Shown one piece after another: positions 2,859 through 60,750 of a DNA stretch of 64,000 nt. The notes under the pieces were generated by a model. The model searched no databases. It saw nothing but the letters and a program-made list of their open reading frames with translations, and was not told the origin of the DNA. This DNA comes from Leucoraja ocellata (Eukaryota), in the NCBI GenBank assembly GCA_036785375.1, contig JAWMAR010000202.1, forward strand, positions 3,162,001-3,226,000. The letters run 5' to 3'. Numbering within the stretch: position 1 is the stretch's first letter; every line of letters begins with the position of its first letter. The position numbers were made by a program, and so were the translations under genes.

Positions 2859-3584
2859 TGGCTTGCAATATCCACTCTTCATAGCCATATAATTTTGGAT
2901 ACCATTCATCCACATATCATACGCCGAGTCAATCTATTTATTTACTTTTAAGAATAGCAGACCTTTCTAGATTCTCATCTTCATGGATTTTTAGCATCAA
3001 CACCATTTGTTACTGCACACATGGCAACATCTTTCTTCTTGTTAAAGGTGTGGGAAACCTCCCATTTAACATTTCATTAGCCTACCTTCCACCACCCACA
3101 CCCCCCTCCCTCCCCAACTCATTACCAGTCATATTTTTTTTATTTTACATGTGCCTATATTTTTTACGTCTAGAGATTTGTTATTCTGATATCACCTTTT
3201 TATAATCTCCTTATTATACATCCCCCCCCTTATGAATCACAAAATTCCACAAGGCTTAGTTGGACTGTTAAACATCACACTGCCATCTCCCCCAACACAA
3301 AAGAGAATAAAATAGAAAAGCAAAAATCTGCAGCTTTTTGAAGTATTGTGACCAATACTTTTTAAAAAATCAATGAAATGTTCCTACCTTTAATTACTCG
3401 ATTAAGTATTTCCGGGCAAATAATGGCTCATTAGCAGAAAAGTCCATCAAAGAACATATAGTGGCTGAAGTCCATAGTGGTTGGGGTTTTGTTTTAACAT
3501 CTATTTCTTCATTCAATTTAGATTTAGTAAAGTTGCTTGGATTTAAAAAAAAAGGCAACAGTAAAGAAAAATAAAGCAAGGCAC

Positions 3585-3790
3585 AAAGCACTGGAGTAAC
3601 TCAGTGGGCCGGGTCTGGCAGCATCTCTGGAGAACATGGAAAGATGAAGTTTCAGGTCAGGATCCTTCTTCAGAATATGAAGAAAGACCCCAACGCAAAG
3701 TGTCACCTAATCATGTTCTCCAGAGATGCTGCCTGACCCGCTGAGTTATTCCAGTACTTTTGTCTTTTTTGTAAATCAGCAACTGTAGTT
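3585..3790. repeat. Fold-back PLE-derived short repeat (two inverted halves)
   Basis: CTGGAGTAACTCAG..GGCAGCATCTCTGGAGAACATG ... CATGTTCTCCAGAGATGCTGCC..CTGAGTTATTCCAG. The same family recurs at 21740-21910, 22160-22280, 24685-24782, 25345-25420, 25640-25745, 25935-26030, 29205-29377, 32300-32410, 33700-33797, 37640-37870, 41450-41506 and 60660-60725. Confidence 0.8.
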
Positions 3791-3799
3791 TGTTATACC

Positions 3800-4165
3800 T
3801 CCTCCCTCAATTCTATCCAGAATCCCCAACAGTAATTTAAGGCGAGGCAGAGGTTCATTTGCACCTCCTCCAACTCATCTACTGCATCCATTGTTCTTGG
3901 TGTGGGCTCCTATAAATATACCAGACTGGGCAATCGTTTCGCTGAATACTCACGATCAGACCACCTTGGCCTAGGCGATCTCCCAGTTGCCAAACAATGG
4001 GACATTTTCAGCTCCACCCTTCCTTGGTCATCTGTGGCCAGTCCTGCTTTGTTCTGGCCATTTCTTCCTTCCAGTTCCCTCCCCTCTACTTTCAGTCTGA
4101 AGAGGGGTCCCAACCCGAAACACCATCCTTCCTTTTTCTCCATAGATACTGCCTGACATGCAGAG
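3800..4165 (+). mobile_element. Penelope-like element 3' fragment (GIY-YIG remnant + pLTR)
   Basis: Degenerate ...CTSSN/IYCIHCSWCGLL..RLGNRFAE..; ends in the CTGAAGA..CCCGAAAC motif. Confidence 0.7.
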
Positions 4166-4167
4166 TT

Positions 4168-4568
4168 AGAAACATAGAAATTAGGTGCAGGAGTAGGCCA
4201 TTCGGCCCTTCGAGCCTGCACCGCCATTCAATATGATCATGGCTGATCATCCAACTCAGTATCCCGTACCTGCCTTCATTCCATACCCTCTGATCCCCTT
4301 AGCCACAAGGGCCACATCTAACTCCCTCTTAAATATAGCCAATGAACTGGCCTCGACTACCCTCTGTGGCAGAGAGTTCCAGAGATTCACCACTCTCTGT
4401 GTGAAAAGAGTTCTTCTCATCTCAGTTTTAAAGGATTTCCCCCTTATCCTTAAGCTGTGACCCCTTGTCCTGGACTTCCCCAACATCGGGAACAATCTTC
4501 CTGCATCTAGCCTGTCCAACCCCTTAAGAATTTTGTAAGTTTCTATAAGATCCCCTCTCAGTCTCCTA
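4168..4568 (-). mobile_element. CR1-clade LINE 3' end (HER1-like)
   Basis: ORF 4256-4519 DRLDAGRLFP..RTRGHSLRIRG..FTQRVVNLWNSLPQRVVEA is the classic CR1 ORF2 C-terminus. The 3' tail reads AGAAACATAGAAA on the plus strand. Confidence 0.9.
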
Positions 4569-5024: not shown

Positions 5025-5860
5025 CCAAATACCTTGAAATCCTCCAACATTTTTGCCACCTCCAACAGGATCCCACCACTAGTCATGTATTCCCATTTCC
5101 TCCATTTCCTGCTTTCCACAGAGATCTTTCCCTTCGCAACTCCCTGGTTCACCCATACCTTCCCACCCAAACCACCCCCTCCCTGGAACCTTCCCCTGCA
5201 ACCACAGGAGATGCAACACCTGTCCTTTTCCTCCTCCCACAATTCCCATCCGAGGACCCCAACAGTCCTTTCAAGTGAGGCAGAGGATCACTTGCACCTC
5301 CTCCAATCTAATCTACTGTACCAGTTTTCTCAGTGTGGGTTTCTATATATCGGCGAGACCATGAGCAGACTGGGCAAACATTTCGCTCAACACTTACGCT
5401 CCGTTGTCCTTGGCCTAGGCAATCTCATTTTAACTCCCTTTCCCATTCTGACCTTTCTGTCCTGGGCCTCCTCCACGGTCAGATTGGGGACACACCCAAA
5501 TTGGAGGAACAGCACCTCATACTTCGCTTAGGCAGCTTACAACCCAGCGGTATACACATTGATTTCTCTAACTTTAAGCATTCACTCTACCACCCACACC
5601 CACCATAGTCGCCCTATTAGTTCCACTGTTCACATTCTTGTATCCATTGCTTATCACCTCTTCCTCAGCCAACAATGACCCATTATGGGCTCCACCCTTC
5701 CTTGGTCATATGTTGCTGGCCCGGAATTCTTCTGGTCTTTTCCTACCTCTGCTTCCCTACCCTCTAGTTTCAGTCCGAAGAAGGGTTGCAACCCGACTCG
5801 TCACCCATTCTTTTTCTCCAGAGATGCTGCCTGACCTGCTGAGTTACTCCAACACATTGT
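5025..5860 (+). mobile_element. Penelope-like element fragment with GIY-YIG endonuclease remnant
   Basis: Translations ILQHFCHLQQDPTTSHVFP..PAFHRDLSLRNSLVH, SNLLYQFSQCGFLYIGETMSRLGKHFAQHLRSV and HFNSLSHSDLSVLGL..KLEEQHLILRLGSLQPSGIHIDF match the PLE linker plus GIY-YIG domain. Frameshifted; followed by a pLTR-type repeat. Confidence 0.85.
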
Positions 5861-7789
5861 CTACCGTCACCTTAAAATTCTTGATTAGATTGAGGGGGAG
5901 AAAATAAATTCTACCAGAATATAAACCTTTTTTATTTTGTATATGTTCTCTCCCAATTCATTAACATATATTAACAATGAAACCGATATAAAATTATAAA
6001 ATAACAACGATCATGATGCCTGATATACACAAGACATCAGATCATAAAACACTTTCACATTGTTATTAGGACACCAAGTAGTTTGGTACAATGGCCTGGA
6101 TCATCCAACACCCAAGGGAAAATAAAACCCTCTTGCTATACTCAGTGTTGTTCCTCACTGACATGTAGTTTGACTGTACCTGCATAGTTTGCAGCTACAT
6201 TTCATATTTACTTATGCTGACATAGTTCTTTTTTTTCTTTCTGCAGTTACTCCAGCCATTGTTTCAACAGTTTGGAGATTAAGAACTAGGTGGAATAATG
6301 GCTGTGGTAAAAGCAACCGTTATAAGCATCAGGCTCAAAACTACACTACCTGATTGCATCTTTCACTGTATACCTTTCTGTGATTTCTTCTTTTCTTTCT
6401 CGTATATTTTGAATTGCTTTCATCTCTCCTCACTTCCTTGCTACGTCTCCTTTAATTGAAAGAAGGATAACAACATTAGTTCCTTTGCCAATACAAGACT
6501 CTTTGCTCACGCTTATGTTCATTCCCCAACACAGTTCTTTCATCACATTTCACATAATGTTTTCAGATGAATCTATGATGTGCATCATGTGACTTTTATG
6601 CCCTTGGCTTCCAGATAGTCTTTCTGTTTATCCATACTCATTGCCTGGAACAATCGTTATACAATTTTGTACAACTTACTGTCAGTGTTTAGATCGCAAG
6701 TCAATTGCATAAATAAAACGCATAATGAGATCAGTTTCAATCAGCTGCAGTGGAAATAATTTTTTTCCTCAATCATCAGTACCTAGAATCATAAGAATGC
6801 TGTACAAACAAAGTCTGTTTGAATACTGATTCCAGGTACTGCATTGCTGTTAAATTGAAACTACACAGAATGAAGCTATGTATCTCTACTACTCTATGTC
6901 TGTTAGATGACAAGCACATAAAAATGGGGAAAGACATCTTTAGTAGTCTCTGTTTCTTATATTGTCACCCTCCACAACTATGACATTGGGAAGCACATTA
7001 ACCCAGTAGAGTGATGCAGAGGCTTGACATTAATCTCCTAAAGCAGGGAGGCATAAAAGTACATCTTGATTTTCTCTCCAGCAGTAAATTTTAAGCTTGT
7101 TTACATTATCAGGGTCAATTTATTTTGCACCAAGTTCAAGAACTTAAAGAAACAATCTTTGTATTTTTCTTCAATTACCTAGAATCTATTTACAGCTCAA
7201 AAGAAAAGCAAATACACTTTATTTTTAAAATATTTATGCAATATAACCAAGCAGTCAAAATACCTTCTTGCTAGTTGTCTATATGACGTGTGCATCAAAT
7301 TTTTTCGTAAAGTCAAGGGAATTCCTGTTGAATATACTATTTTCAGTACATCTTCAATCAACACACCAGACAGAGACATTGGGATTGGCCACTGCTGTTC
7401 AAATTCCAAGTCAAATATGCAAGTTACTTTTAAAAAAAAATAAATGGGTCTCTGTGTCCATTAAAATTGTTTAAGTAAAAGTATGTTTTTGGAGTTGGTA
7501 ATAAACATAATGGTTGTGAAGTAAATAATAATTCACCACAAATCTGAAAATTCAGTTGCATGCAATAAAGCATTTGGTGATTGAAGGTTTAGTGCAAATG
7601 GGACTAGTTTCGAAGAGGCATCTTGGCCGGCATGAATTAGGCCAAAGGGCCCGTTTCTGTACTGTAAAACTCTTGCGTGGCGTGCACACAACTGATTTAC
7701 CCTTCCACGCCTAGTATTGCAAAGTTCAACTTAACTAAACAAAGTGACAATAGATTTGATCCGTGATCATGTTTTGTATCCAGACCTTT

Positions 7790-8470
7790 TATCTGGAACA
7801 AAAGAGAGTCGAGAGGAGAAAACCAGTGTAAAGAAGTGAAAGGGAGGATTGGTGTAAGAGCTGGCAAGCTATACGTTGTTTGGCAGATGGAGTCAGGTGG
7901 TGGTGAAGGGGAGAGACAACGACAGAGACGTTGAGGTGATAAGTGGAGCTTGATAAGAAAGGAAACGTGGAACCAAATAGAGAGGCTTGATGGATGGATG
8001 GGAATAGTAAGAGGAGGGGGATAGGAAACTCAGTGGGCGGGCGATGGGCAGGTTAAGAAGATGGGGGGTGAATATTTAAAGGGAGAGTGTGTGCAAGAGC
8101 ACCTGGGTAGATCAGGAGAGAGAAAAGGTCAGAGGGGAAGCGGGTTACCTGAAGTCAGATAATTCAATGTCCATTGGGTCACGCACTATCCATGCAGAAT
8201 GAAGTGCTGTTCCTACAATTTACATTTGGCCTCACTCTGGCAAGAGGATAAACATGGTGTGGGAATGGAAAAAGGAATTGCAACCGGAGCTCCAAATGGC
8301 CTTCCAGAAAGAGTCACCTGGTATCACTAACATAGAGGAAGCCAATCGAGACCACGGAGTCCAATAAATGAGGTTGGAGGAGGTGCATATGAATTTCTAT
8401 CTACCCTGAAGTCTGTTTAGGTCCCTGGATTGAGTTGAGGGAGTAAGTATAGGGACAGGTGTTAGATGAG
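7790..8470 (-). mobile_element. Old PLE fragment (inverted)
   Basis: The reverse complement resembles 5200-5750 (e.g. AATGAGGTTGGAGGAGGTGCATATGAA, GAAGTGCTGTTCCT..AATTT). Highly diverged. Confidence 0.55.
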
Positions 8471-8509
8471 TGAGATGGTGTTGCCACAGGTCCTAACTAT
8501 ACCTGCTCA

Positions 8510-8735: not shown

Positions 8736-8775
8736 GCCAAGTGAAGCAATCTTCACTGGCCAAGTGAAGCAATCT

Positions 8776-9520
8776 TTGTTCCTAGCCTACATTGGCATTG
8801 AATCCCAATTCTTCCTCCACAAATCTACGACTATATTGGCGCTGCCTCCAATACTCACGTGGAACTCATCACTTTCAGCAACTATGGTTCTTACAAAAAC
8901 CCCGCCATGAGATTTACTTGGACTATTTCTAACACCTCACTTCCCTTTGTTAATGTTTCTGTCTTTATCTCAGGACACAATTTTTCCACTGACAATTATA
9001 AAAAAACACCGACTCCTACAGTTACCTCGACTACATCTCCCTTTACCGTGTAACTTGAAAGGACACTATCCCATTCCTCAATTTCTCTGTTTCTGCGGCA
9101 TCTGTTCTCAAGATGAAACTTTCCACACCAGGACATCCAAACTTTCTTTTTTCAGGAAATGTGGATTCCCGTCCACTGTGATGGAGCCCTCACCCACATC
9201 CCCTGTTGTCCACACTTCTGCACGCCTTTTTGTCTCCACTTTTCATCTCCCAACCTCTGTCACTATTTCTACCTTCCCTCCCCACATCAATCCATCTGCC
9301 ATCAGCCCCTCCTTATCAGGATTCACCAATCATTTGTCAGCTCTTGCCCCTTTTCACTCCTCTTTTCCTGGTGATTTCCCTCTACTCTTCCAGTCGGATG
9401 AAGGGCCTCATCTCAAAACATTGACCACTCATTCCCTTCACAGATGCCACCTGACTCGCCGGATTCCTCCAGCAGTCTTTTTTTGTTACAGTTTCCAGCA
9501 TCGGCACTCCCGTGTATCCT
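8776..9520 (+). mobile_element. PLE reverse-transcriptase C-terminal fragment + pLTR
   Basis: ..DYIGAAS..ELITF..PAMRFTWTISNTSLPF..VSVFISG..STDNYKK/PTPTVTSTT../IPQFLCFCGICSQDETFH, characteristic of PLE RT; degenerate. Confidence 0.7.
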
Positions 9521-10628
9521 GATTTTGAAGTTGGGTTGTGAAAACTAGTATAGATGAAAGTTAGTCATGTTTATGATGAATCTATTGATATCTCGAGTAT
9601 CCTTCCTCAATAAAATATTACAGGACAATTAAAATGGCAAAGCAGGTTTTACTTTCGCATTCTCACTTGCAGAACAAACCACAACCGTTATGTTCTATGC
9701 TCACTTACGATTTCTGCTAATCATTTTTTGAAGTTGAGGTGAAAATCTCTTACACAACTTTTATACAACTATTTCAGAGATTGGTGGATTTGTATTAAAA
9801 CTATCTATCTGGGAACATGGTGTTAATTTAGAAAGTGAATAGATGTAAAAAATTAATGTCAACATGCAGAACAAATGCATGGCGTCAAATAGCTACTTTT
9901 GCTCCAATTTTCATTTAGAAAACCTTGCGCATTAACTCAAATTCTAAAGCTGAAAATATTTTGCAGAATCGCCAAAAGCACTATACAGATGCAACACTCA
10001 AGTAAAAAGATTAATGCAATTTGGCCCATTAGCTCAAAGAAAAATGTAACCATGAAAAACACCCAAGAAACACTGCATTCAATTTTGGTAAAGGGGTCCT
10101 GGAGTGACACATACGTTCTGAAGGTGCATTATGTGGATTTTCCAGACACCAGGACTTAAAGAATTAAATCTTGATTCTTTAATGTAGACTCAATTTGCAA
10201 TCACTCGAGTTTAGAAGGTTTTGAGTGATCTATTAAAATCATTAGTTGCTAGAGCATGAAATAAGGCCATTGCGCTCAGAGACGTTTCACAACTTTTTTT
10301 CTCAATAGTCCAGTTATTTTTTCCCTTTGTCAAATAAATTATTTTCCATAATTAAACACAAAATGCTGGAGTAACTCATGGGGTCAAGCAGCTGATGTGT
10401 TGCTCCAGCACTTTGTGCTTTACTCAAGATTCCAGCATCTGCAGTTCTTTCTATATCTAAATAATATCCTTAATTTTTTGAGCAGCTTAATTAACTCTCA
10501 TTACATCAATTGATTATACATTGCATCTTTACAGAACTATCAATATTGTGTAATTTTTATGTGAAATTCTACAAATGTTAATAAAATAATTTGGAATGGG
10601 TGCATTGAGAAGAATCAGAAGTGTAGTT

Positions 10629-12760: not shown

Positions 12761-12896
12761 NNNNNNNNNNNNNNNNNNNNNNNNNNNNNNNNNNNNNNNN
12801 NNNNNNNNNNNNNNNNNNNNNNNNNNNNNNNNNNNNNNNNNNNNNNNNNNNNNNNNNNNNNNNNNNNNNNNNNNNNNNNNNNNNNNNNNNNNNNNN
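12761..12896. other. Assembly gap (136 N)
   Basis: Run of N. Confidence 1.
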
Positions 12897-13669: not shown

Positions 13670-14430
13670 GTAGCCCTTCAATCAGTCATATCCTTGCGAA
13701 TATGTTGTGCATTCTCTAGCACTTTATGACATCATTCCTAAATGATAGTGACCAGAGCTGTACACAATATTCCAAGTGCAGTCTCACCAAAGTATTGTAC
13801 AATTGTAACACAATGTACCAACTCTTTCACTCAATACCCGAGCTGATGAATATGGCTTCTTCACCACCTTGTTTGTGTCACCACTTTTAAGGAACTATGT
13901 ACTACAATAATCAACAGGGCTCCAAGTATATCCTGCCCTGGTTTACCTTGCCAAAATACACAACATCACACGTGTCCAAATTGAATTCCACCTGTCCCGC
14001 TTTCTCCATTGATCTAGATCCAGTTGTAAACTTAGACAACGTCTACACTGTTCATCACACCACCAATTTTAGTGTCATCCGCAAACTTGCTAATCATGCC
14101 ACCTGCATTGTCAAAATCATTAATATATACAACAAACAAGAAAGGATTCAGCATTGATATCGGTGGCACACTACTGGTCACAGGCCTCCAATCTGAAAAA
14201 CAACCCTTCGATTCATTGGAAATTAGAAAGATGAGAGGATATATTATAGAAACATATAACATTCTTAAGGGATTGGACAGGCTGGATGCAGGAAAAAAAG
14301 TTCCCGATGTTGGGGGAGTCCAGAACCAGGGGTCATAGTTTAAGAATAAGGGGTAGGCCATCTCAGATTGAGATGAGGAATAACTTTTTCACTCAGAGAG
14401 TTGTGAATCTGTGGAATTCGCTACCACAGA
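13670..14430. mobile_element. Two CR1 fragments back to back (13670-14205 minus, 14210-14430 plus)
   Basis: Minus: FSDWRPVTSSVP..LNPFLFVVYINDFD..ISKFADDTKIGG (RT FADD motif). Plus: RGYIIETYNILKGLDRLDAG../RTRGHSLRIRG..FFTQRVVNLWNSLPQ. Confidence 0.85.
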
Positions 14431-14431
14431 A

Positions 14432-14940
14432 GATAGTTGCAAATTGGGTATCCAATGTAAACGGTACAAGTGGAGGGTGGGGGGGGGGGGGTAAACTTTG
14501 TGTTCAGCAAAGTGGTCGCTGTGTCTACACTGGATCTCACCTATGTACATGAGCCCACATCGGGAACAAAGGATGCAGTAGATGAAGTTAGAAGAGGTGC
14601 ATGTGAACCTTTGTCTTTATACTTTATTTATATTGGAAAGACTGGGGGTCGCTGGATGGAGGCAAGGGAGGACATATAGGGACAGGTATTACATCTCTAG
14701 GGGAACGTACCTGGGCAGAGGGCATGCTCTGCTGAATGCAGAAAGGGGTGGCGATGGGAAGATGCGATTAGTGGTGGAATCACATTGGAGGTGACGGAAC
14801 TGTCAGAGGATGATGTATTGCATGCGGACTCTGTCGGGGTGAAAGGAGGGGATCTGGGGAGCCCTATCCTTATTGGGTCCGGGGAGAAAGGGAGCGAGAG
14901 AATAAGTATGGAACTCAGAAGAAACATGGGTGAGAGTATG
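14432..14940 (-). mobile_element. PLE fragment (linker/GIY-YIG region)
   Basis: Reverse complement homologous to 5030-5400 (RIGLP..PFTPTESAC..; CTSSNFIYCI..). Confidence 0.65.
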
Positions 14941-15748
14941 AACAGCTAAGTTTTGTACAATTTGGAATTTAGGAGAATGGATAAGGGCCGTAACATTTTT
15001 GTGATGGTGAAAGAATGATGCAGAACAAAAGGCTGGAAACCATTTGGTTTAATATTAATAACCAGCCAACATAAATAATTTATGCAAATTATATAGGATA
15101 CAGGATCTCCCTGAATTACAGATGACTGACTGGAAATCTGACTTTACACAAGTTCCCCCACACATTTTTAAAGCATTTTTCGATACAATAACAAAAATGG
15201 TTTCTGCGCTCATTAATGACTGGACACAGTACTTATTCTAATAGTTTAATTGTGGGTAGTGTTAAGGTGAATATTTAATTAAATTAATATATAACAATTG
15301 TACATAGAGCAATACGCATGGGTTACTTTAATAAATGGACATTGCTGACATAAAGAAGCTTATGGATAGTTCCAAGGAATCAAACCTTGTTTGTGGCAGT
15401 TTTTGACAAAGAAACAGGCTCAGCCAGTCAACAATACTTTATACACATAAACCTTCTCTCTTTCTACACCGAACTATATCAGTGAAACCCTCCATCTCCT
15501 TCTTGCTAATAATTCTCCAGCTGCCTCTTACCATTCGTTTTAACCACTCCTTATATTCGCAATATCCGCATTTACACCACTCTTTAGATAAAGTATCTTT
15601 CAAATTCCCTACTGAATTTCTTGGGAACCATCATACACTCATGGTTTCTCCACATAAACCCTATCAATCCTTTATTCTGCACATGTTTATTGGGTCACCT
15701 CTTATGGTAAATAAAAATGGACCAAGACTGATTTTCCTAGCATGCACA

Positions 15749-20399: not shown

Positions 20400-21180
20400 T
20401 TGACTCAGAACCCACTGCCCCGAACCCCCAGTCAGTGGCAACCGCGAAGCCCCTGAAGGGGGCGGGCCCTACTTCTTCGCAACACATCTCCCGCGGCCCC
20501 AGTACAAAACACAGCCCGATCCACTCACTCGTCTCCGTCCGGGCAGATCCCAGTCGTCTCGTCGTATTTGGTGCAATAGACGTCCGGGCTGTAGTTGAAG
20601 GTGCCGTCCCGCCTTCTGATGGGCCTCCGCCGTCGCTGGTTCAGGAAATGCCAGTGGAAGCAGGTGAAGGGCCTGTGCTGGGCGCACTTGTGCTGCAAGA
20701 AGAGCGGGCATTGCTCCGTGCGGAACTCCTTAAGGTATCTGCAAAATCAAGGGTTGCAGATTGGCAAGCGACTGGGACGGACGTGCAGGCCGCGAGATGG
20801 GTCCGTGGGACGCGGTGAGGGGGTGTGAGGACGGGCTTGCGGGGGGCGGGGGGGCTGAGGCCTGGGCCTGGCGGGCGGGGGAGGGTCGCTACTCCGAAGC
20901 TAAATTAGCTGTCGTGAAATGAGATCTGCACTGCAGGTTTCCTGCCGTTGGGGGGTTTTGTCCGCCACGGGCGGGTTGCAGGGCGTTCGGGGCGGTCGCG
21001 CTGCGGCGGGCCTCGGTACCTACGTGTAGTGAGACGGTTTCTCGGTCTGAGGAGAAGCGCTCGGCGCAGCTTTCGAAACCGACGGCATTTTTTAGTCAAA
21101 ACAATGGAGTGCGCGTGCGCGGCGCAGAGCGCGCCGGGTAATTGGCGGGACGGTTCAAACGCCGGCTCGGGACACGTGGC
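20400..21180 (-). promoter_or_regulatory. CpG island / UNKL promoter
   Basis: High GC and CpG content, GC boxes (GGGGCGGGG) and GCGC runs around exon 1. Confidence 0.7.
20529..21088 (-). CDS. UNKL: Unkempt-like zinc-finger/RING protein, coding exons 1-2 (exon 1 21088-21024; exon 2 20738-20529); gene continues leftwards beyond the window
   Basis: Spliced translation MPSVSKAAPSASPQTEKPSHYT|YLKEFRTEQCPLFLQHKCAQHRPFTCFHWHFLNQRRRRPIRRRDGTFNYSPDVYCTKYDETTGICPDGD; GT/AG sites in phase. The MPSVSKA start and the CAQHRPF/HFLNQ/RRRP residues match UNKL rather than UNK. Neighbour UQCC4 as at human 16p13.3. No exon 3 found in 1-20500. Confidence 0.92.
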
Positions 21181-21189
21181 TGGAGCCCG

Positions 21190-21560
21190 GGGTGAGACTA
21201 GGGTAGACCCGGGCTAATGGTGGGGAGTTGCGGGGAGACCCGGGCAAGTTGCGGGGAGACCCGGGCAAGTTGCGGGGAGACCCGAGCAAGTGGCGGGGAG
21301 ACCCGGGGGAGACGGGCCAGTGGCGGGAGACCCGGGGGAGACGGGCCAGTGGCGGGGAGACCCGGGCTAATGGTGGGAAGACCCGGGGGAGACTGGCCAG
21401 TGGCGGGGAGACCCGGGCTAGTAGCGGGGAGACCGTGACAGCGCTCGGGCAAGTGGTGGGGAGAGAGACAAAGGGGGTGGCGCGGAGACCGGGCAAGTGG
21501 CGGGCAGATCGGGTCAGCACTCGGGCAAGTGGCGGGGAGCGCCCGAGTAAATCGCCGAGG
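21190..21560. repeat. G-rich minisatellite upstream of UNKL
   Basis: About 14 degenerate 21-33 bp units of GGCGGGGAGACCCGGGC(AAGT/TAAT). Confidence 0.9.
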
Positions 21561-24500
21561 GAAGCCCGGGAGAACGCCCAAGCATGTCGCCATTATCGCC
21601 TCGTATGTCAAAATGTTTGATTAACACTTGTTCCGTTTTGTAAGTCTGCAGTGCTGTTTGTAATTAAATTGTCGTTGAAAAATAAGAGGATGTGGCTTTA
21701 AGCTGAACGAAGAAGTGGACTATGCCAATAACGTTTGTAGATAGGAACTACAGATGCTGGTTATACACCGCAGATAGACATAAAATGACACAATGAAGAG
21801 AAGGAATGGACGACGTTTCGGGTCTGAAGAAGGGTCTCGGCCCGAAACGTCACCCATTCCTTCTCTCCAGAGATGTTGCTGGTCCCTCTGAATTACGCCA
21901 GCATTTTGTGTCGATGACAGTAACATTTACTGGTGTATATTTCGCTAAATAACCACAGACTATGAAGGAGATTTTGATTTTTCGCAGGTCGAACAAGAGT
22001 GCTGTCGAAATAATAACTACATTATTAGGTTGAACCGATGTGATCGTGAAAGTACAATTACTTTAAATAGAATAATTTGATTTTGAACTCCATAACATAC
22101 AATATGCAAATTACTGGAGGAACTCGGTGAATCCGGCAGCACCTGGAAAGAGAGGATAGACACAAAAAAGCTGGAGTAACTCAGCGGGTCAGCAGCATCT
22201 GCAGAAAATAAATATGTGACGTTTCGGGTCTAGATCCTTCTTCAGACTGGACAGGCGATGTTTCGGGTTGGGACCCTGCCTCCATATTACCGTGATGCTT
22301 GTTGTGGCTGATGACTCAAGGCAAACGTTGCCAATGTTATTGAGAACCACCGTCCGTATACATTGCACTCCCACATAACACGTGGAGTTGCTATTGTTGT
22401 GGTGACTCAACGCGCTGAGTCAGATTGTCAGCGAGCAGCTGAGAGAAAACGCTCGTAGCGCCTGAAGTACTCGTTGCTCCAAACAACGCTGAGGTTTTCA
22501 GTATCTTTTGAACAGCTGAAGAGGCAGATATTTTGTTTTAACATCTAAAGGGGTGACTTCCCTAAGGACACAGCGATTACTCGGGTCAGCCTAGACAGCC
22601 GACTGCAGTCTCGGATTCGGGATTCAAGGTACTTGGTCAGCCCAAAGTACCGAATCAGTGGGTTTGTAGCAGCACTGAGCGACACCGCGGCGCAGCAGTT
22701 AGCGCTCGCACCCCTGTTTCAGCGAGTCCGTGTTCGATCCTGACCTCGGATGTTATCAATCTCCTCACTGTTATCAATGGATGTTGGCTGTGGAGTTACA
22801 AGGAACTGCTGATGCTGGAATCTTGAGCAAAAACAAAATGCTGGAGGAACCCAGCGGGTCAGGCAGCACCTGTGGATGGAATGGATAGACGACGTTTTGG
22901 ATCGGGACCCTTCCAGCAGTATTTGATGACCGAAAATGTTGCACCTCCGTAACGGGGCATGGGGCGGAGCTGTTTGAAGTAGTTTGACACCTTGTTGCAA
23001 TTCTGTAACCAATCAACTTCATGATCAAACAAGTTCCTGAACATCCAACTGGAACGTATATTCATTCCTAGAAATGCCGACGTTTCCGGTCCAGAATGTT
23101 CCCAGCAGCCACTCAACCTGAACCGTGAATCAACTTGCCCCGGGCCATTTTCGTAAAAGATGCCCGTGCCTCACTGCTTGGTTAATGAACGAACTACACG
23201 CAATCTGCTCTCATCTGTCGTAGCAACGCTGAAAAGCATTTCTCACATTGGAGTAGTTCAAGGAAGTGTTTGGGAGTTCAGAATTATGGTGAAGAAATAG
23301 CAACATATTTCCAAATCTGGATTAAGTGTTTTGGTGGGAAACTTACAGATGTCGATGGTCCCAAACCTCTGTCTTTCAGGTTTGGGAGATACTGTTGGAG
23401 TTACTTTGGCGAGTAACTAAGGCATTTTTAGGTGGCACAGACTGCAGTGATTAAATATATGAATTTTTAGACTAATGGGTGGAGTGCTGATCAATGGGTA
23501 GCTTTGTCCTAGATAAAACTGTGCTCCTAAAGAATTGCTGGAGCGACACTCATCCAGGCAAGTGTAGTTTAAACCTTGTAGATGGTGTGGGAACTTTGGA
23601 CAGCCAGGAGGTGAGTCATTCACATTAGGATACCCACTTACTCATAATCACCTCTTGGTCATGCCTCGCATTGTCAAGGTGAGAATGTTACTTGTCACAT
23701 TTAGCTCATGCCAACCTGTTTTCTAGGTTTTGACGCAGTATTTGTGGCCGGCCCATTTAAGTTCCTGGTCAAAAGTAACCATAGGTCATTAATGGAGTGA
23801 GACTTGCAATAATAATAATGTTCAAGTGAGTTTATTGTCATGTGTCCCTGATAGGACAATGAAATTCTTGCTTTGCTTCAGCACACAGAACATAGTAGGC
23901 ATTTACTACAAATGTTCATTAATGATAGGAGAAAAATAGGCCATTTGGCCCATCAAGTCTTAATTAATCTTTGTCTTTCAGAATGAAGGCTTAGTCATCA
24001 GAAGTTATTCCAGTAATTTGTTCAACACAATTAAACTAAGTCCCCTTTAACTACTTGGTTTATCTCATCCCCTTTTAAACAACAGTTCAGTGTTAGCGGG
24101 CCTAACAGAAACGTAGTCAAAGCCTCCACAATTTTTCTCCTTTTCTTTGTTTAGTAGGTTAGCAAATATTTCACTCAAGACTGATGAGGTAGCCAGTTTT
24201 GGACAATCTATACCTGATGCTTCCTCCCTTACTGTGTTTATGTCAACAATATTTAAAACACTTTTTCATCAGCTACATGATAAGCATTCCCCCACCCCCT
24301 CTCCTTCCCCTCTTTTTAAACACCGTCGCAACACATTCATTTTACCTACATCCACTGCCTCTTCATATAGGTAACACTTTTACTCACCAATGGGCTACAA
24401 AACTTCCTGAGTTATCCTCTTACACAATGTACTTAAAGCATCATTGGGTTTTATTCATTTTACACTTTGGTGCTTATTAATGTGTCTGAATGAGTTACGG

Positions 24501-24989
24501 TGATATTCATCTCTGAATCATTGGAAACCACCATGCATACACTGGACCACACTTCATGTTATGTTCAGGCTGTAGTGAACTGAATTAATAGGAGTGGGTG
24601 AGGGTAGCTACTTTAAGTACGTCTTGCTTGAAAGCTGCCTCATCCTGGCAACTTACCAGGTCAATAACAAAAGTGCTCTATAGGGGGTACACAAAATTGC
24701 TGGAGAAACTCAGCGGGTGCAGCAGCATCTATGGAGTGAAGGAAATAGGCGACGTTTCGGGCCGAAACCCTTCTTCAGACTGATGGGGGGTGGGGGGGAG
24801 AAGGAAGGAAAAAGGGAGGAGGAGGAGCCCGAGGGCGGGGGGATGGGAGGAGACAGCTCGAGGGTTAAGGAAGGGGAGGAGACAGCAAGGGCTAGCAAAT
24901 GGCCAATGTTCGCTAAGCACTGTCTGTTGTTGTCCCTTCAGCTCTCGCTTCTATCTACTGTCATTTCTCCTCACTTTTGGAATTCTGAA

Positions 24990-25195
24990 GTAGGCTAAAT
25001 GTCTCACACGCTTATCCTGATTTCCATAATTATTTACAGCGCAAAAATTGACAATTTCGGCGGGTTTTAATGGGCCCGCTACGCTGGAAAGAATGGTAAG
25101 TGCCTACCTGCGGTTCATCGCGTGTAATCCACTTGGAGTAGTGTAGCAACAGTACGGGTCATGGGTCATGACCCGACTGCCGTGAAACCTCCCTA
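24990..25195 (-). mobile_element. Terminal fragment of a DNA transposon (TAGGG-ended, hAT-like)
   Basis: Minus strand starts TAGGGAGGTTTCACGG with subterminal GGGTCATGACCC palindromes; CpG-rich relative to the flanks. Other end not found. Confidence 0.4.
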
Positions 25196-26069
25196 TGCAA
25201 GAGGAGAAGTGGGTAAGCTTATTCCATTGAATTGCTAAAGTAATTTCAATTTATCATGGATTATAAATAAAGGATATTGCCTGTGGGTGAGATGATGATA
25301 TGTGCAGAGCGGATTAATTAATGAGATGACCAGCTCAGCTCCACCCAAAACATCACCCATTCGTTCTCTCCAGCAATGCTGCCTGTCCCGCCGAGTTACT
25401 CCAACATTTTATGTCTATCTTAGCTCTAGTTCAACAGACTGCTCCTAGCCTGACCAGTGAATCATCTAAAGGTCTAGGCAGGGAACATGATAGCTTTTTA
25501 TAGATGATAGATCCTCCTGTGTTTCCGTTTTGAAAAGTCAGTGGGGTTGCCCACCTACAACCAGCACCCTCGATGCCTCCCATGATTGATATCTCTTCTC
25601 CCCACCCCCACCACTCATGGATTTTGATTTTGGGTCTGAGGGAGTGTCCATGCCTGAAACATCACCTACCCATGTTCTCCAGAGACTGACCTGCTGAGTT
25701 ACTCCAGCACGTTGAGTCCTTATTTGTAAACCAGCATCTGCATTAGTATATTTGATCTGCAGGTCCTTGTTTCTAGATTTATTTTAATTGTGTTTAGATA
25801 TTTGGTAACTTTGAAGTAAAACAAGTTATTTAAAGTCAAATTATATTCAAACGGTAAGTGTAAGGCCTGGACATATTTTGGAGGGAGAGGAAAGTTTTGG
25901 GCCACTGCAACAATTCCTGTATTTGTAAGAACGTGTCCGAACAAGGGTCTCGACCCGAAACGTCACCAATTTCTGCTCTCCAGAGATGCTGCCTGCCTCG
26001 TTAATAAGTTACTCCAGCATATTGTGTTTATCTTCCTGTATTTGTCATCAAGATGAGAGTGAGACATTG

Positions 26070-26185
26070 AGGGGGCGGGGCCAGGGTTGTTTATTGTTAC
26101 ATTACAATTGACTTGGCCAATAGCCTGCAAGGAACAACGCTATGGAACGTTGGCCCGGGAGTGACGTCAGGCGGGATATAAGTAG
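26070..26185 (+). promoter_or_regulatory. H3.3 core promoter
   Basis: GC box GGGGGCGGGG (~26071), CCAAT (~26117), perfect CRE TGACGTCA (26162-26169), TATA-like GATATAAG (~26175-26182). Confidence 0.75.
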
Positions 26186-26699: not shown

Positions 26700-29732
<3,033 letters not shown>

Positions 29733-31793
29733 AATGTTACACGTTGAGATTTTCTCAAAGTTAATTGTATTTTGAAATTTATATTTTAAGAGGCCCATTC
29801 CTGAAACAATTTTGGACTACAGTCTTGGCTTCTGGTGAAGACTGGGCCACCTTTCATTTTTTTTAGTATTGATAATAATTTTAAATGTGTAAGTAGCAGA
29901 TCATTTTGTAAACATTCTTTGACTCTTGGCTCAGGTTTCAAAATAAAACGTTTTGTATCTTTAGCCTGTGACTTTAATATACACACATTGTGAGTGGGAA
30001 CTGTCCTGTATTGCAACTTTTAATGATGGGGGGGTCCACTCAGATTCTGAATAAATTCTGAATAAGTTTATTTATAAACAATCAAGAAAAAATGTATCAA
30101 ACGAAAGTTATGTTCTGTACATTTATTACAGTATACCTGTACAGATTGAAAACCAAAACGAACCAATGATTCAGTGTTTGTTTTGCCTGATCAGGACTGC
30201 TTCACACAACTCGTGTGTATTGCAATCCAATGGTGTAGTAAGATTGATTTTAATTGTTTTAATTCCACTTTTGGCAGCATTTTCAGTACAGTACTTCAAT
30301 TAAGGAAAAGTAGTGGTGAGAAGCATTAGCACTGTACTATGAACAATATTGCAATTACAGATAAGGTCGGCTTCAAATCAGAGATGATCCTATCGTTTAC
30401 ATATACCACATATTGTTAAAGGACAATGTTCAAGAGAAGACCCTCCCAGCTGGCTCTCTCCCCACCAACCTAATTTTGCAGTATCTTTGTCAGGCAGGCC
30501 ACATCTTCATCCTCATGATTGTCTCAATCTGAGAATATTAGATGCCAAAATTTGAAACTGACAATTTAGTTTTGATTATTTTCTCCAAAATGATCCCTTG
30601 TTCCTTTTTCAGTTGCTTCGACAAAGGAACTCTGCAGATTAATCAAATTTATAAATACACGTTATCAATAGAAATGTTTAGATAGTTGTTACCGCTGAAA
30701 CTTTGACAGTTTTCAAATTAACTGCAGAGATGAACTGTGGTTCTGAATGATGCAATGGCTACAAGTGAGTAACCAAGCACAGATCAAGGTTTAAATGTGA
30801 ACATCTCGTGATATGGAAAGGTCCGAGTTATCGATGCCATCAGAAGCTCAGCTGTGCCATTGTGTGACTGATCATCTCACACTTCATTCTCTGTTGATAT
30901 GTCTCAGTCGAGAGAAGCAGTGAAGTCTCATACATCTAAATTATGTTTCCGAAGGAATCATGAAAACTCAAATGGAAGATTCCACCAACCAAATTTCAAC
31001 CTCAACAGATTTCAGTTGAAGTAAAACTGGATATGATCTGGATACAGGAAATAAATGGAAATACTCAGTGTCAGGCAGCACACGAAGAGAGAGAAATAAA
31101 GTTAATGCGTCAGATCAAAGACCCTTTATCAGAATCGGGAAAAGTTAGAAGTTAAACATGCCTAAAGCTGCAAAGAATAGGAGTCTCCATTCAACTCGTA
31201 TTCTGGCATCTGTATTTGGTGGTCTATGCTGTTTTAAGCAAAGTTCAATACCAGTTTATAGAACAGGACCATGGGTTTCTTCTGGGTTCATTGCAGCTTT
31301 CAAAACTCAAGAGTTAATCAGCCATTTCAGTCGTATCTTTTTACTCTCCCTTGTACTGGTAATTTTGTATTTTATTTTTCCCTTCCTTTTTGTTTCCCAA
31401 TGCACCTTTTGTAGCTTACAAATCTTTCTCACTCTCATTCAGCAGCACCAGCCATACTGGTGTCATTCAATCTTTCTTGGCTTCCACCATATCACTTTCC
31501 TTTATTAATTTTCTGCTCCTCCCCATCTCTGCAACTTAAAATGGTTTATTTCTATCTTTATTCCATTCTAAGGAAAGGTCATTGATTTGAAATTGTGAAT
31601 ACAATTCTGACTCCATAGGTGCTGTCTGGCCAGTTGGGTATTTCTAGTATTGTCCATTTTTATTTCAGATTTCCAACCTCTGCAATAATTTGCTTCTGGA
31701 CGGCAGTTTCATAATGAATTTTATCATCTACAATTTCAAAAAAAAACAAAACAAAAAACATGCCTAATTGCGGGAGATACCATCCTCCATTCA

Positions 31794-34700
31794 TTACGTT
31801 GTTTTGTTTGGTTTCTTGGCATCTTCCTCTGGCTCGGCCTCGGACAGTATGAGATCAGGAAAATGGTCACTCAAAGTTTGTCCCATGATTCTATCAACTT
31901 CAGTTTCTTTCCTAAGGATGCACCAAACTAAAAAAGCAATTGCAGCCAGACTGAGGGGAAGAACCTTCCACCAAGGTTTTTGATGACCACCGCCCAGTGC
32001 TTTCTCCACAGACCAGACAGAACCGCTTGCCTTACTGGTGCTAAATTTTATGGCTCCATCTTCTTCATTCTCAATTTCCTTAAGTGATGATTTTTGGTCA
32101 CGTGGAGCTGTAGAGAAGGCTCTTGTCGAATTGTATTGTCTACAAAGAAAACAAAAATTTGAGTTGCGTCATTATTTGCAGATTAGCCCATGCTAGTAAA
32201 CATAACACACATTGTTTTTCTTGTCTCTCCCTAAAGATGGTTCCATATCCCAATACCCATCTGCTAGACCAGATGTAAAGCTCTTACATCTAAACTCAGA
32301 AACTGCAGATGCTCATTTGCAAAAAAAGACACAAAACGCTGGAGTAACTTAGCAGGTCAGACAACATCTGACGAATATGGATAGATGTGTTTTGAGTTCT
32401 GACCCTTCAGTGATTTTAGTGAGGCAGAGAAAGCAGGAGGGGTGCGACAAATCCTGGCAAGTGATAGGTGAAACAGGTAAGGGTTTTGGTTTTTTATTGG
32501 CAGATTGAACAAAGGCCAGAAATGAAAAGACAAATATAGAGATATGAAATGTGAAGCCAAAAGGAGGCATACACGTGGGAGGTGACAGGAAAAGGGAGAA
32601 ATCCAGATGGGGCACAGGGGGGGGGGTGGGGTAGGAGGAGGTTGGTTTTCTCCTTTAACGTTCTCCTCACATCTCTGATATTTACACATGGGAACTTGAA
32701 GCTCTTACATATTTCCACTTCAGCGCCATTGATGTTCAATGGGAATTGAACACCACGTTGTTTCCTTAGTCCATAACTATCTCCTTCATTTTGCTTATAT
32801 TAAGGGAGGGGTTGTTGGTCTGACCATATTATGAAGGTATTTATCTCCTTCCTGTAGTCCAGTGCATCATTGTTCGAGCCCACTATAATGGTGTAATATG
32901 TAAACTTGTAAATGGAGTTCGAGCAGAATTTGGCATCACAGTGCTGAGTGTATAGGGAGTGTAGTAAATTAAATGAGTACCGCTTAATTTCACATCCCGT
33001 TATGCCATGCTTGTTCAAATAATTATCCAGGTGCCTTTATGTGCTACTTCTGTTTCCATCGCCTCATCTGAGAACTCAATTTAAATACTAACTACTCTTA
33101 AAAGTTTACTGTTCAGGCTTGCTTGAAACCACCCCCATCCAACCTTAAATCTGTGGGCTATAGTTTTAGACAGCTCTACCATGGGAAACAGACTCTTTCT
33201 ATACGTTCTATGCCATTCATATTTTTGTATAGCTCTCAGCCTCCTTTGCAACATGAAAATAGACCCAATGTATCCAATCTCTCCCTATAACTCAAACTCT
33301 TTAATCTAGGTAACATCCTTGTGAATATTTTCTGCATCCTCTCCAGCTGAATATCTTTCCTGTAGAGTGGCCAAAACTGATCATAATAATCTAACTGTAG
33401 CCTAATCAACTTTTCCTGCAACTGTAACAAAGTCTCATCTCTTGTACTCAATACTTTGTCCTATGTCCATAATAAGCCTTCTTCATCACTCAGTTTACCT
33501 GTGTTGCCACTTTCAAGGAACTCTATATTACGAGCTCTCTCTCTGCTAAACAACAATCAGAGTTCTGCCATTCACCCTGTATGTCTTCCTCCAGTTTAAC
33601 TTCCTAAAATGCATCGCTTTCCACTTGCCAAGTTAAATTTAATTTGCCTTTGGCCACTTTGTCAGTTGATCAATATTCTCTTGTCATGTTAGACAACCTT
33701 GGGTAGACAAAAGTGCTGGAGAAACTCAGTGGGTGCAGCAGCATTTATGGAATGAAGGAAATAGGCAATGTTTCGGGCCGAAACCCTTCTTCAGACTGAT
33801 CTGTTAGACAACCTTCTTTAGTACGAAAGGCCTGTTTTGATCAATCTCTCAAGGGACAAGAAAATCACCCTAGAAGTTAATCCAATGAGCTTCCATTGCA
33901 CTACTTTCAAGGCAAGTTTATCATTCTTTAAATTGTACCTGACACTAGCTGTGGTCTCACCAAAGCTCTGTGCATTTATAGACTTTTTTATGCTTGTACT
34001 ACATCTTCAGTACAATAGAGATTACCTCTTCATTTAGTTATCTCATGCAACTGCTTGCTAATATTTCTAGAGTATACAAACCCCATGATCACCCCTGGCA
34101 CCAACATTGAAGAATGCCACCATTTCAGTAATCCTCTGTTAATCCTTAACCATCCTCTGTTCAATTTACTAAATTGGATAATAATACATTTTCTCTCATT
34201 ATATCCCATCTTAAGAGAGTAAATTGGATGACGAAATCAATGACCAAGCAGCATAGATTTTACATCGTGGATAGAATAAGAAAGGAGGTATGGAAATTGT
34301 TTCCCCAAGTATGGTAGAGGTCTTCACCTCGCAGCTTGTAAGGGTGAAGATGTAGAAACACTCATCACTTTAAAAAAGAACCACAGTGTGTATTTGGAGA
34401 GCTGTAACCTGCAGCACTTACAAACCAAGTGCTGGCATTAGATTAGATTCGTTTATTGTCATTCAAACCTTTCGGTCTGAACGAAATTTTGTTTCCCTGC
34501 AGTCATACATATAATTTAAAAAATGACAAAAACACACAATCAACACAAATTTAACATCCACCACAGTGAGTTCACCAAACACCTCCTCACTGTGGTGGAA
34601 GGCAAAATCTTAAAGTCTCTGTCTCTTCCCTCTTTGTTCTCCCTCTGCGCCGAGGCGACGGCTCAAACTCTGCGGGTGGTCGCTGCCTCCGCCACAGCTC

Positions 34701-35536: not shown

Positions 35537-37879
35537 CCTCCTTTACAACAAAATAACCAGTCCACTGGTGCACCGGCTCAGCCTTCCCCAGCACCACTAG
35601 TTCCGGCGAACACTGCGGAAAGCAACTCACTTCAACATCCAGTACTTGAAAGACATTGATAGTAAGAAACCCATAGTTGTAAGCACATGTAAGCAGTGCT
35701 AGAGCATTAACTTCCATTTTCATATCTCTTAAACTGTCATAGCGATCCAAAATGAAAATAAGTATGTATTGCAATGAGAAATTGATCCTTCTGGCTTAAC
35801 AAGGTAAATCTTGCAAAGGGGTAACATCAGCAAAAAGGTCCCCCATGTTCAAAAGCCAATGATTTGTTATAACATCAGTAAAGTTTGAGATATTAAACAA
35901 ATTGAGAAATAAACAAATTTACCATCCTCAGTTCACTGTGTCTCTAATATGTTTGGCTTTGTTTCCCATTTTCATTTCTTTGGGAGATTTTCTATTACTT
36001 AAATGTACTTTTTGTGACATTTTTGCACTGTGTTTAAAAAAAAAAAACCCTCTAGGTTATATAGGATAAAAGCTTGCTATTTAAAATACCTATTCTTACT
36101 GTCATTCATGATATTTGTCAGATACAGCTTTCCTTTAGACCTACCGGTAACTACTGGGCGACCAGACCTGGTTGGGTTACCTGGTAACAGGTCTTCTGTT
36201 TCTTGCTTGGCTATTCCATGAAGTCGAGGATGACTTCAGTGGAAGTGACTGCTGAGGCCAATGAAAGACCTGCAATTTATATCATTGGTGGAGCAGAAAG
36301 TACTGATGGGGCAGGTAGTGAGTATTTTCAGAGGTTATCTAGGCCATTCATAATTCCCCTTCTCCACTTAGAATGGTCACGGACCAGAATTTCCTTGAGT
36401 CATTGGGGATGTTATATTTTATATTTTCCAAGGTAGGCGTGTAGAATCCATGAATCATTTCTCCTCTCCTCTTGTTAATTGGTTGTTTTTAGAGTAATTA
36501 GAACATTAAACCTGATGATGTTGGCCTTAGACAGGAGGACAATGATATTGGTTCAATTATCCTACAGTAGTTTGGGATGATGATGTGCAGTGAGTGTTGC
36601 ATCAAAACTTTGAGTCTTCAACCGTAAGTAACCCATGTCACAGAAGCATATAAGAGGGTGTTGATTTTTACTGCCTGAGAGATGATAAACTTTGTACCAG
36701 GAGAGAGATCTAGATCATCAAACATTCTTTTCACAGATAGTCAAAGAAGGTGCAAGCACACTGAAGATTATGCCAAATATCAAATTGATGTCAGCCTTTG
36801 CTTAAAAATGACTCTCGAGATATGGAAAATGGCCCATGTTTTCCAAGTATGTCATCATGGACTTTTAGCAATGGGAAGGCACCATTGTGCAGGGGGTTTG
36901 AAGACGTTCGGTATAAAGTCTCATTCTCCAAAATGTTTCCATGAACCAGTCAGTCAAGGTGTGGTCAACAGAAAGAGCTGGCATAGCTTCTTTGAAGGAC
37001 ATGGATAGGCAGCATTTCGGATGGGAACCTTCCCCAGAATACGATTGTTGCGATTAGTCTGTAATGTGATTGTCCCCCACTCATGTGGTCCCCTCAGGTG
37101 ATATTTGCTTTCCTTTGTTTGAGGTTACTGTAACATTTTGTGTCTTTCTTTGTAAACCAGCATATGCAGTTCTTTTTGTTTCTGTATCCGCCTGTCACTT
37201 GGCAGGCTTTGTCCTGCCCCACCTCTCTTCTAGATTTCTCAGGATTCAGGAGTGTTTTATTGTCGTATAGAGAACAATGAAATTCTTACTTGCAGCAGCA
37301 CAACAGAACATGTAAACATAGTAAAGAGTACACTGTAAACAATATAATAAGCAAATAAATAAGTTCAGTGTGTGTATATATACACACATACATATATGTG
37401 TATATACACAGCTACAAGCCTAGTGGTATGAATATTAATTTACCTAACTTCAGGTAGACCCGGCATTCCCTCTCTCTCTATCCGTCCCCCACACCAGTCG
37501 CACTAGCTTCTCGTTTTCACCGAACAAACAGCTAACAATAGCCTGTTTCCTTTATCTTCGTGACTTTTTTGCATATCTTTCATTCATTATCTTTTTATCT
37601 CTCCACATCGTCGTCTATATCTCTCGTTTCCCTTCATCTCTAACCAGTGTGAAGAAGGGTCTCGACCCGAAACGCCACCCATTCCTTCTCTCCAGATATG
37701 CTGCCTGTCCCGCTGAGCTTGTTGTGTCTACCTTGGTTTAAACCAGCATTACATACATGCATATATACTCCCCCTCTACACCAATAATTCTGAGGAAGGG
37801 TCCCCAATCTGAAACGTCGTGTGTACATGTTCTCCAGAGATGCTGCCTGACCCGCTGAGTTACCTCAGTGCTTTGAGTC

Positions 37880-60509: not shown

Positions 60510-60750
60510 GCTTAAGGTCGAGACCCTTCTTACGTTGAACAATCCCTGTTCCAGGCGTTCACTGGCCCTATCACCAAACTCTATCTCCGTAACGTTGACG
60601 ACTGCATCGGTGCTACCTCCAGCACTCATGCAGAACTCGTGGACTTCATCAACTTCACTACTCGACCTGAAACGTCACCTTCGCTCCATAGATGCTGCCT
60701 CACCCGCTGAGTTTCTCCAGCATTTTTATCTGCCACCAATTTCCACCCTG
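60510..60750 (+). mobile_element. PLE RT catalytic-motif fragment flanked by pLTR-repeat pieces
   Basis: EQSLFQAFTGPITKLYLRNVDDCIGATSSTHAELVDFINFT corresponds to the PLE RT (Y)xDD region. Confidence 0.7.

Follow-up and report, generated by a model that had tools for sequence, protein, structure and literature searches.

The 64,000-nucleotide stretch of the Leucoraja ocellata genome considered here (contig JAWMAR010000202.1, positions 3,162,001 to 3,226,000; hereafter referred to as the window) contains, at 21820-21855 on the forward strand, 36 bases that can be read directly as a minimal type I hammerhead ribozyme closed by a GGGU/ACCC stem I. This raises two questions: what kind of element brought the motif there, and can this copy still act as a ribozyme? 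Our answer, which we hold to be very probably correct, is that the motif is the terminal-repeat hammerhead of a Penelope-like element (PLE) family, likely of the Neptune type, and that the copy at 21820 forms one arm, the right one, of an old head-to-head insertion and is likely an inert hairpin.

The hammerhead motif and its repeat family

The letters at 21820-21855 are as an earlier, sequence-only reading had given them, and all 11 core positions are unbroken. The motif has the following parts:

21824-21830 (+): CUGAAGA box, followed by an extra A at 21831 (sequence)
21832-21843 (+): stem II, strands 21832-35 and 21840-43 with a 4-nt loop (sequence, folding, 17-copy alignment)
21844-21851 (+): GAA (21844-46), palindrome ACGU (21847-50) and C17 (21851) (sequence; numbering as in PMC4209133)

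In the dimer model, ACGU is predicted to form intermolecular helix III, with cleavage predicted after 21851. Stem II of this copy has 4 bp (three G-C and one U-G) and a loop of 4 nt, not the 5 bp and 2-nt loop implied by the brackets of the earlier reading; a 5-bp stem with a 2-nt loop is sterically impossible. The arrangement agrees with the consensus given for the minimal hammerhead ribozymes (min-HHRs) of the pseudo-long terminal repeats (pLTRs) of metazoan PLEs, namely CUGANGAH, G10.1-C11.1, GAAAN, a palindrome and NUH (Cervera and De la Pena 2014, PMC4209133), and copies of the motif follow PLE fragments in the window, both of which uphold its assignment to this kind. The A after CUGAAGA, previously listed as a caveat, is instead a conserved trait of this kind of hammerhead in the same source. 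The kind has been known since 2014, and the motif is ordinary for a PLE-rich genome.

The pattern CTGANGA-N3-25-GAAAC occurs nine times in the window, versus 1.02 expected, and none of 100 shuffles reached nine. The published min-HHR descriptor (stem I of 3-7 bp; PMC4209133) was re-implemented and run on the window and on 100 resampled windows. With a stem I of at least 3 bp, it returned a single match, the 21820 copy (null mean 0.02); with at least 2 bp, it returned four, adding 24778, 29327 and 33794 (null mean 0.04). Three of the four well-formed copies in the window thus fail the published descriptor because their helix I has 2 bp. No Rfam hammerhead family was found among the 85 window matches or the four local matches up to E 10, a silence that we do not count against the motif because it is expected where helix III is lacking. 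One frame is open for 44 codons (21818-21952, +), spanning the hammerhead and the whole unit; a protein search with it yielded no relative at E 0.01, which is weak evidence.

The motif heads a repeat of ~105 nt that is the commonest of the window. Self-comparison linked 26 intervals (the family and its PLE fragments), versus five for the next family, in agreement with the earlier claim that the dominant short repeat carries the core, and 12/12 of the secondary positions then listed for this core are family copies. A hidden Markov model (HMM) built from 13 copies matched the window 34 times up to E 1 (29 times below E 0.01), taking in 3.6% of its length, and had no match in five shuffled windows; a covariance model gave 39 matches up to E 1 in the window. 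Two metagenome scans for further family copies produced no matches. Exact 16-mer matches of the family in viral contigs (12, none with the 5' box) were treated as chance, and a 22-base pattern of the family that matches exactly at one place in a metagenome-assembled bacterial genome (L013:3501-3522) probably does so by chance.

Across 17 aligned copies, stem I is a 2-bp helix, with the first pair formed in 16, the second in 12 and the third in two, much as the sequence-only reading had noted for most copies. The extra base between positions 9 and 10.1 is A in 16/17, pair 10.1-11.1 is G-C in 12/17 and G-U in 3/17, and 86.8% of the stem II cells are paired. Seven copies keep 11/11 core positions; seven have the ACGU palindrome, and four more (ACAU or ACGC) are a single transition off. 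Majority-base agreement was counted in 14 copies, the other three having a 5' half missing or out of register. It reached 91% (140/154) in the core, 64% (36/56) in loop II, 69% (125/182) in the 14 nt past the cleavage site and 88% (397/453) in the downstream block; with all 17 copies, the values for the core and downstream block were 84% and 86%. Constraint on the core exceeds that on the adjoining sequence without exceeding that on the downstream block, a comparison that is descriptive, the copies being related. Stem II covariation did not rise above shuffles in the unfitted alignment of the 17 copies, in which changes were one-sided only (U-A to U-G and similar). A model-fitted alignment of the 39 matches exceeded all 500 shuffles; as this alignment leans to the structure and includes non-homologous flanks, we take from it no more than the exchange of U-A for G-C in older copies.

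The head-to-head insertion at 21737-21913

The motif at 21820-21855 lies in the right arm of a 177-bp head-to-head insert (21737-21913), which can be divided as follows:

21722-21736 (+): probable left target-site duplication, 12/15 identical to the right copy
21737-21824 (-): inverted arm; holds the 3' strand of stem II, half of the core (GAAACGTC) and, past an internal deletion, the 3' end of the unit and a ~35-nt tail
21820-21824 (+): junction; GG (21820-21) from the inverted arm, GTC (21822-24) readable as either arm (3-nt microhomology)
21852-21913 (+): remainder of the ~105-nt unit, a variable 14 nt and then the conserved block, with no tail at the end
21914-21928 (+): probable right target-site duplication

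The arms pair over 29 nt (21794-21822 and 21841-21869; 90% complementary), and both duplication copies abut the ends of the element. The junction provides the apparent 5' strand of the 4-bp stem I. Its GGG is the reverse complement of the stem-II 3' strand of the inverted arm, the family's own 5' flank being CAGT. The 4-bp stem I of the 21820 copy is a product of the inversion junction. A second junction-made 4-bp stem I was considered at 25636 but found no support (fold-back score 12). Head-to-head pairs were found at 3572-3773, 10348-10431, 21737-21913 and 29195-29377, with a tail at one end only. Three other copies have target duplications of 13-15 bp, reached by at most 1/600 random site pairs. 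The paired arms, one-sided tails and duplications agree with the anatomy described for PLEs (PMC8557442, PMC3846280).

The fold energies that follow are secondary-structure estimates, which do not include tertiary contacts or Mg2+. RNA from 21790-21880 is predicted to form a single hairpin (-49.2 kcal/mol, z -7.8). With at least 40 upstream bases, the hammerhead fold of the 21820 copy would cost 24 kcal/mol and its palindrome would never be unpaired; the corresponding cost for three other intact copies is predicted at 7-12.5 kcal/mol. For the 36-mer, the dimer model was estimated at -17.9 kcal/mol, versus -27.9 kcal/mol for the best inactive dimer. The 21820 copy is likely inert because the long hairpin with the inverted arm is predicted to pair its catalytic bases. 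The motif is a real minimal hammerhead, but the modelling indicates that it is likely an inert relic within a fold-back repeat. The analysis does not support a view of this copy as the best-formed ribozyme: the inversion junction supplied its stem I, and folding predicts a sequestered core. Descriptor searches choose the wrong copy here: the one that passes owes this to the inversion junction and is, by prediction, the least foldable, and well-formed family copies are missed.

Reads or contigs from four of 24 listed runs were compared with 21560-25100 at 85% likeness. Contigs of the related organisms B, C and D pass from the unique flank into the inverted arm, reaching 21818, 21838 and 21826 with four, three and two differences, respectively; the insertion predates the split of B, C and D, because their contigs cross the same left boundary. 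RNA was represented by one oligo-dT run of organism B, ~5% of it read, a fragmented library and hence a poor gauge of RNA ends; in this run, depth was 0-0.3 in the unique bins next to the 21820 copy.

These data bear on whether the copy has been retained as an active or regulatory RNA element upstream of an unkempt-family gene, a reading that we regard as highly improbable. It would fit the 11 intact core positions and the presence of the insertion in three related organisms. However, the differences between the arms (3/29) and between the target duplications (3/15) point to ~5-10% decay per copy, a level that, by simple arithmetic, would leave a core of 11 nt intact 30-57% of the time. The intact core therefore needs no selection. 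The predicted sequestration of the core and the lack of RNA on the flanks in the run just described also speak against retention.

Parent element, ends of the copies and expression

A 49-residue piece from 5182-5328 led to one relative and, through it, to 1625 proteins, the best 150 of which served as PLE-type queries (tblastn). Within the window, they matched 3770-4003, 5039-5578, 8317-8496, 8746-9402, 14386-15021 and 60528-60755, with one further, weak match at 37401-37454. The hammerhead unit lies just downstream of 3770-4003, 5039-5578 and 8746-9402 and of the weak match at 37401-37454; 4/21 core-bearing copies thus stand directly after decayed PLE coding fragments of likely Neptune type. 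The statement that the cores sit at the end of GIY-YIG/reverse transcriptase Penelope fragments holds for these four, but not for the 21820 copy, as the 150 proteins gave no tblastn match below E 0.1 in 21000-26100. Relatives of the window fragments have RVT_1 followed by a C-terminal GIY-YIG domain (P0104 and P0119 above the curated cut-off, the others below); this order, described for endonuclease-bearing (EN+) PLEs of the Neptune/Nematis type (PMC8557442), is found in the matched relatives, the window containing only decayed pieces. A CX4CX2C linker is encoded at 5182-5328, and 93 of the 107 testable relatives among the best 150 of 1625 have a CX2-5CxxC linker. Such a linker is described as absent from Penelope and Poseidon (PMC8557442), and Neptune and Poseidon are the only PLEs reported to have been found in vertebrates (bioRxiv 10.64898/2026.07.22.740005). 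The sequence evidence makes Neptune the likely type of the parent family, because, by these accounts, the linker excludes Penelope and Poseidon and only Neptune and Poseidon were found in vertebrates. Two regions show the arrangement:

3572-4171 (strand not assigned): textbook PLE insertion, with an inverted unit, a direct unit, a GIY-YIG fragment and a second unit (core 4097)
5039-5866 (+): decayed PLE 3' end, with the CX4CX2C linker, a GIY-YIG fragment, a pyrimidine-rich region and a mutated hammerhead unit (core 5775)

PLE linker and GIY-YIG fragments also occur at 14386-15021 (-) and 8317-8496 (-); the family profile search detected no hammerhead unit beside the former. At 60510-60755, a hammerhead unit (60661-60735) is inserted in a PLE reverse transcriptase fragment, the 5' break of which bears an inverted core piece.

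Family copies extend 65-100 nt beyond the GUC, running across the cleavage site instead of ending there. They fit the pattern reported for an anole PLE, in which the template is mainly RNA that has not been cleaved, two start sites of reverse transcription lie downstream of the hammerhead, and the ribozyme depends on the protein for cleavage (PMC11167929). Of the 34 HMM matches, only 22159 has its start as close as 1-2 nt to the cleavage site, and this start overlaps sequence shared with the end of the previous unit. Other informative copies are:

22102-22282 (-): three joined family pieces; whole core in the middle piece (22154-22251) only, with one stem-II mismatch
24678-24905 (-): copy with an intact core, a UUCG loop, a 2-bp stem I and a 95%-pyrimidine tract upstream
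29195-29377 (strand not assigned): another head-to-head insertion, with its intact core in minus orientation and a target duplication of 15 bp (14/15)
33701-33801 (-): solo ~100-bp copy, beginning at TCAG; exact 14-bp target duplication

The copies at 24778, 29327 and 33794 (all -) make up a subfamily that looks young: they are 93-94% alike, their loop is of the UUCG type with a closing U-G pair, and their target duplications are exact or nearly so; they are the best material for a cleavage test. An older decayed subfamily, with differing stems I and II, comprises 27170-27265 (-), 31041-31140 (-) and 31560-31661 (+); in the first two, the second stem-I pair is U-A where the younger copies have G-C, which amounts to about one event.

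The sequence-only reading had called the family retrozyme-like. Non-LTR retrozymes, described as tandem 150-450-bp units with canonical hammerheads expressed as small circles (PMC7229834), would be cut out, circularised and reverse-transcribed by a rolling-circle route. The joined pieces at 22102-22282, the neighbouring copies at 37643 and 37785, the start of piece 22159 and a report of such elements, derived from pLTRs, from one chondrichthyan genome (bioRxiv 10.64898/2026.07.22.740005) could be taken in this sense. However, 0/31 tandem-repeat rows of the window cover the hammerhead, for which reason we do not apply the label, and copies cross the cleavage site. Moreover, a whole core is present in just one of the three joined pieces, 37643 and 37785 are of different subfamily types, the overlap at 22159 detracts from its start, the hammerhead is minimal rather than canonical, and the RNA lacks end pile-ups. 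We consider this route very improbable.

The 5' ends were sorted, partly by eye, for 21 copies chosen for having a core: five are clearly long, three probably long, nine begin at most 7 nt upstream of C3 and four begin within the first box. For five of the nine edge starts, the position is set by an inversion junction or by target duplications of 13-14 bp, and a rough, post hoc binomial estimate of the clustering gives P of 0.002 to 1e-5. In each of the five clearly long copies, U2.1 is immediately preceded by YCAG and a tract of 75-95% pyrimidine. 5'-truncated PLE ends account for the copies, though random truncation does not explain why their 5' ends gather at the ribozyme edge. The TCAGT before the core may be an initiator, a splice acceptor or a point at which the enzyme stalls.

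We favour a course of events in which a PLE reverse transcriptase copied uncleaved RNA from a start 65-100 nt downstream of the GUC and would have halted on reaching the 5' edge of the ribozyme. The end of the cDNA may then have paired back onto stem II by the GAC/GTC microhomology of 3 nt, and its extension would have yielded the inverted arm and, incidentally, a stem I of 4 bp. Of this, the overlap of 3 nt at 21822-21824 is observed; the order of events is inferred. In an active parent element, the motif would be expected to show weak cleavage, either in dimers joined through ACGU or aided by the protein of the element, in line with reports on other PLE hammerheads, and cleavage would be dispensable for insertion.

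The clustered starts could instead mark the ~105-nt unit as a discrete non-autonomous element, with a short RNA starting at the initiator-like TCAGT and mobilised in trans by the PLE protein. The anchored edge starts and their binomial estimate point this way, as do the loose ends before 21822, which are heterogeneous in related genomes (agreement 0.34-0.36), and internal promoters or initiator-like sites are described as possible in PLE pLTRs (PMC2377424, PMC3846280). Nevertheless, longer PLE fragments end in the same ~105-nt unit, a reverse-transcriptase stop at the ribozyme edge would look alike, RNA read starts do not pile up, the anchored set was selected for its core, and the position of the loose ends is forced by the 21820 copy's own departure from the family at 21821. 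We judge such an element possible, but somewhat unlikely. A broader form, in which cartilaginous-fish genomes would hold roughly 10^5 to 10^6 copies of a hammerhead-headed unit of ~105 nt moving as its own short RNA with a fixed start before the core, we consider unlikely. If it were true, the 2-bp stem I would hide from published searches a family among the largest uncounted ribozyme-motif families of vertebrates, and the fixed 5' edge would mark either a PLE transcription start or a PLE reverse-transcription stop.

Splicing might also complete the hammerhead, with the pyrimidine tract and YCAG acting as a 3' splice site and an upstream exon lengthening stem I. The five clearly long copies have the appropriate letters, and a Penelope intron of Drosophila virilis is reported to end at the 5' end of a 2-bp helix I (PMC4209133). 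However, no donor exon was identified; a donor-like site at the end of the open reading frame (37454 region) would recreate the same CAG flank without gaining a pair; the RNA run gave no informative splice joint; and in the D. virilis alignment rows helix I has 2 bp with and without the intron (PMC4209133). This explanation seems to us rather improbable.

Returning to the abundance of the family, the summed contig depth in the three related organisms was ~1.1-1.3e7 in the motif bin versus ~17-50 on the unique flanks, values to be read as orders of magnitude and not as copy numbers. The family is very abundant because this difference spans five orders of magnitude, which bears out the very high copy proposed earlier. 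In the RNA run, 43,690 of 12.9 million records matched, almost all in repeat bins and about equally on the two strands, with 376 at least 99% alike. No read-end pile-up was found anywhere in 21560-25100, the GUC included, and no circle junction at the GUC was recognisable among the best 15 of 1589 joints, an oligo-dT run being unsuited to circles. These results suggest passive transcription of family copies elsewhere, with none detected at the 21820 locus. Another very abundant short repeat lies at 23821-23960, with a summed depth of 2-4e6 in the three related organisms, and is also present in the RNA.

Several points weigh against one part or another of the account that we prefer. Random truncation leaves the clustering of 5' ends at the ribozyme edge unexplained, and head-to-head PLE palindromes have been ascribed to self-priming on an antisense template, not to cDNA fold-back (PMC3846280). 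The target duplication of the 21820 insert is marginal, as 32/600 random site pairs score as well, and no ortholog contig has 31 letters on both sides of the inversion junction. An RNA starting at 21820 would, by prediction, pay just 2.5 kcal/mol for the hammerhead fold, two-sided covariation is absent from the unfitted alignment, and the RNA evidence is confined to part of one run of a related organism. Finally, clade and autonomy were judged from PLE fragments. A very abundant family whose 5' and 3' edges are sharp lends itself to mapping the starts and stops of PLE reverse transcription and to asking whether cleavage products are ever used.

Surroundings and comparison with known systems

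The hammerhead motif lies ~730 bp upstream of the apparent start codon of an unkempt-family gene, which has an exon at 20555-20737 (-; Pfam Unkempt zinc finger 1, E 4.6e-22) and a first exon near 21030-21090. A GC-rich minisatellite (21201-21434, periods 21-80) separates the two. An intron-containing histone H3 gene, presumably H3.3, extends over 26706-29733 (+), and its last intron contains the fold-back copy at 29195-29377, with an intact core on the antisense strand. The gene from 38059 onward (+), which we take to be topoisomerase III alpha-like, has an exon at 55242-56219 and two GRF zinc ribbons (Pfam). An assembly gap of 136 N occupies 12761-12896.

The window family shares with the min-HHRs (PMC4209133) the CUGANGA box and its extra nucleotide, G10.1-C11.1, the GAAA-CG-UH letters and the absence of a loop 3. 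It is likewise dispersed mostly as single copies, with second copies nearby on the opposite strand, and fish rows of the published alignment have the same CUGAAGAA ... GAAACGUC core. By contrast, helix II has 4 bp in the window family versus 5-8 bp in most published rows; helix I has 2 bp, as in the D. virilis, Culex and Oikopleura rows. The two supplementary files of PMC4209133 that were searched contain no shark or skate term. In the openly searchable literature, Repbase and Dfam apart, a search for descriptions of chondrichthyan PLE hammerheads gave bioRxiv 10.64898/2026.07.22.740005 as the only directly relevant source; we do not claim that such a description is absent from print.

Poseidon PAc of Anolis carolinensis (Frangieh et al. 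2024, PMC11167929) resembles the window family in having copies that continue past the cleavage site and terminate at one of two 3' positions, tailed or untailed, and in the absence of RNA-seq ends at the cleavage site. However, PAc belongs to the Poseidon clade and its open reading frame starts in stem II, whereas the window fragments have the CX2-5CxxC linker. The head-to-head inverted pLTRs of Penelope elements (Adineta vaga, PMC3846280; PMC8557442) resemble the insert itself in layout, with an inverted 5'-truncated repeat overlapping a direct one, a tail at one end and flanking target duplications. Unlike them, the 21820 insert is just 177 bp long, lacks coding sequence and has its junction at the 5' edge of the ribozyme.

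The non-LTR retrozymes of metazoans (PMC7229834; bioRxiv 10.64898/2026.07.22.740005) are similarly non-coding, hammerhead-bearing, pLTR-related and present in high copy. Unlike those described in PMC7229834, the window family has no tandem units each with a complete hammerhead, and its hammerhead, with no helix III loop and a helix I of 2 bp, is not of the canonical type I, which has a helix III stem and a loop 1-loop 2 contact. High copy alone is not unprecedented, because up to 120,000 canonical hammerheads have been reported in the axolotl (PMC7229834).

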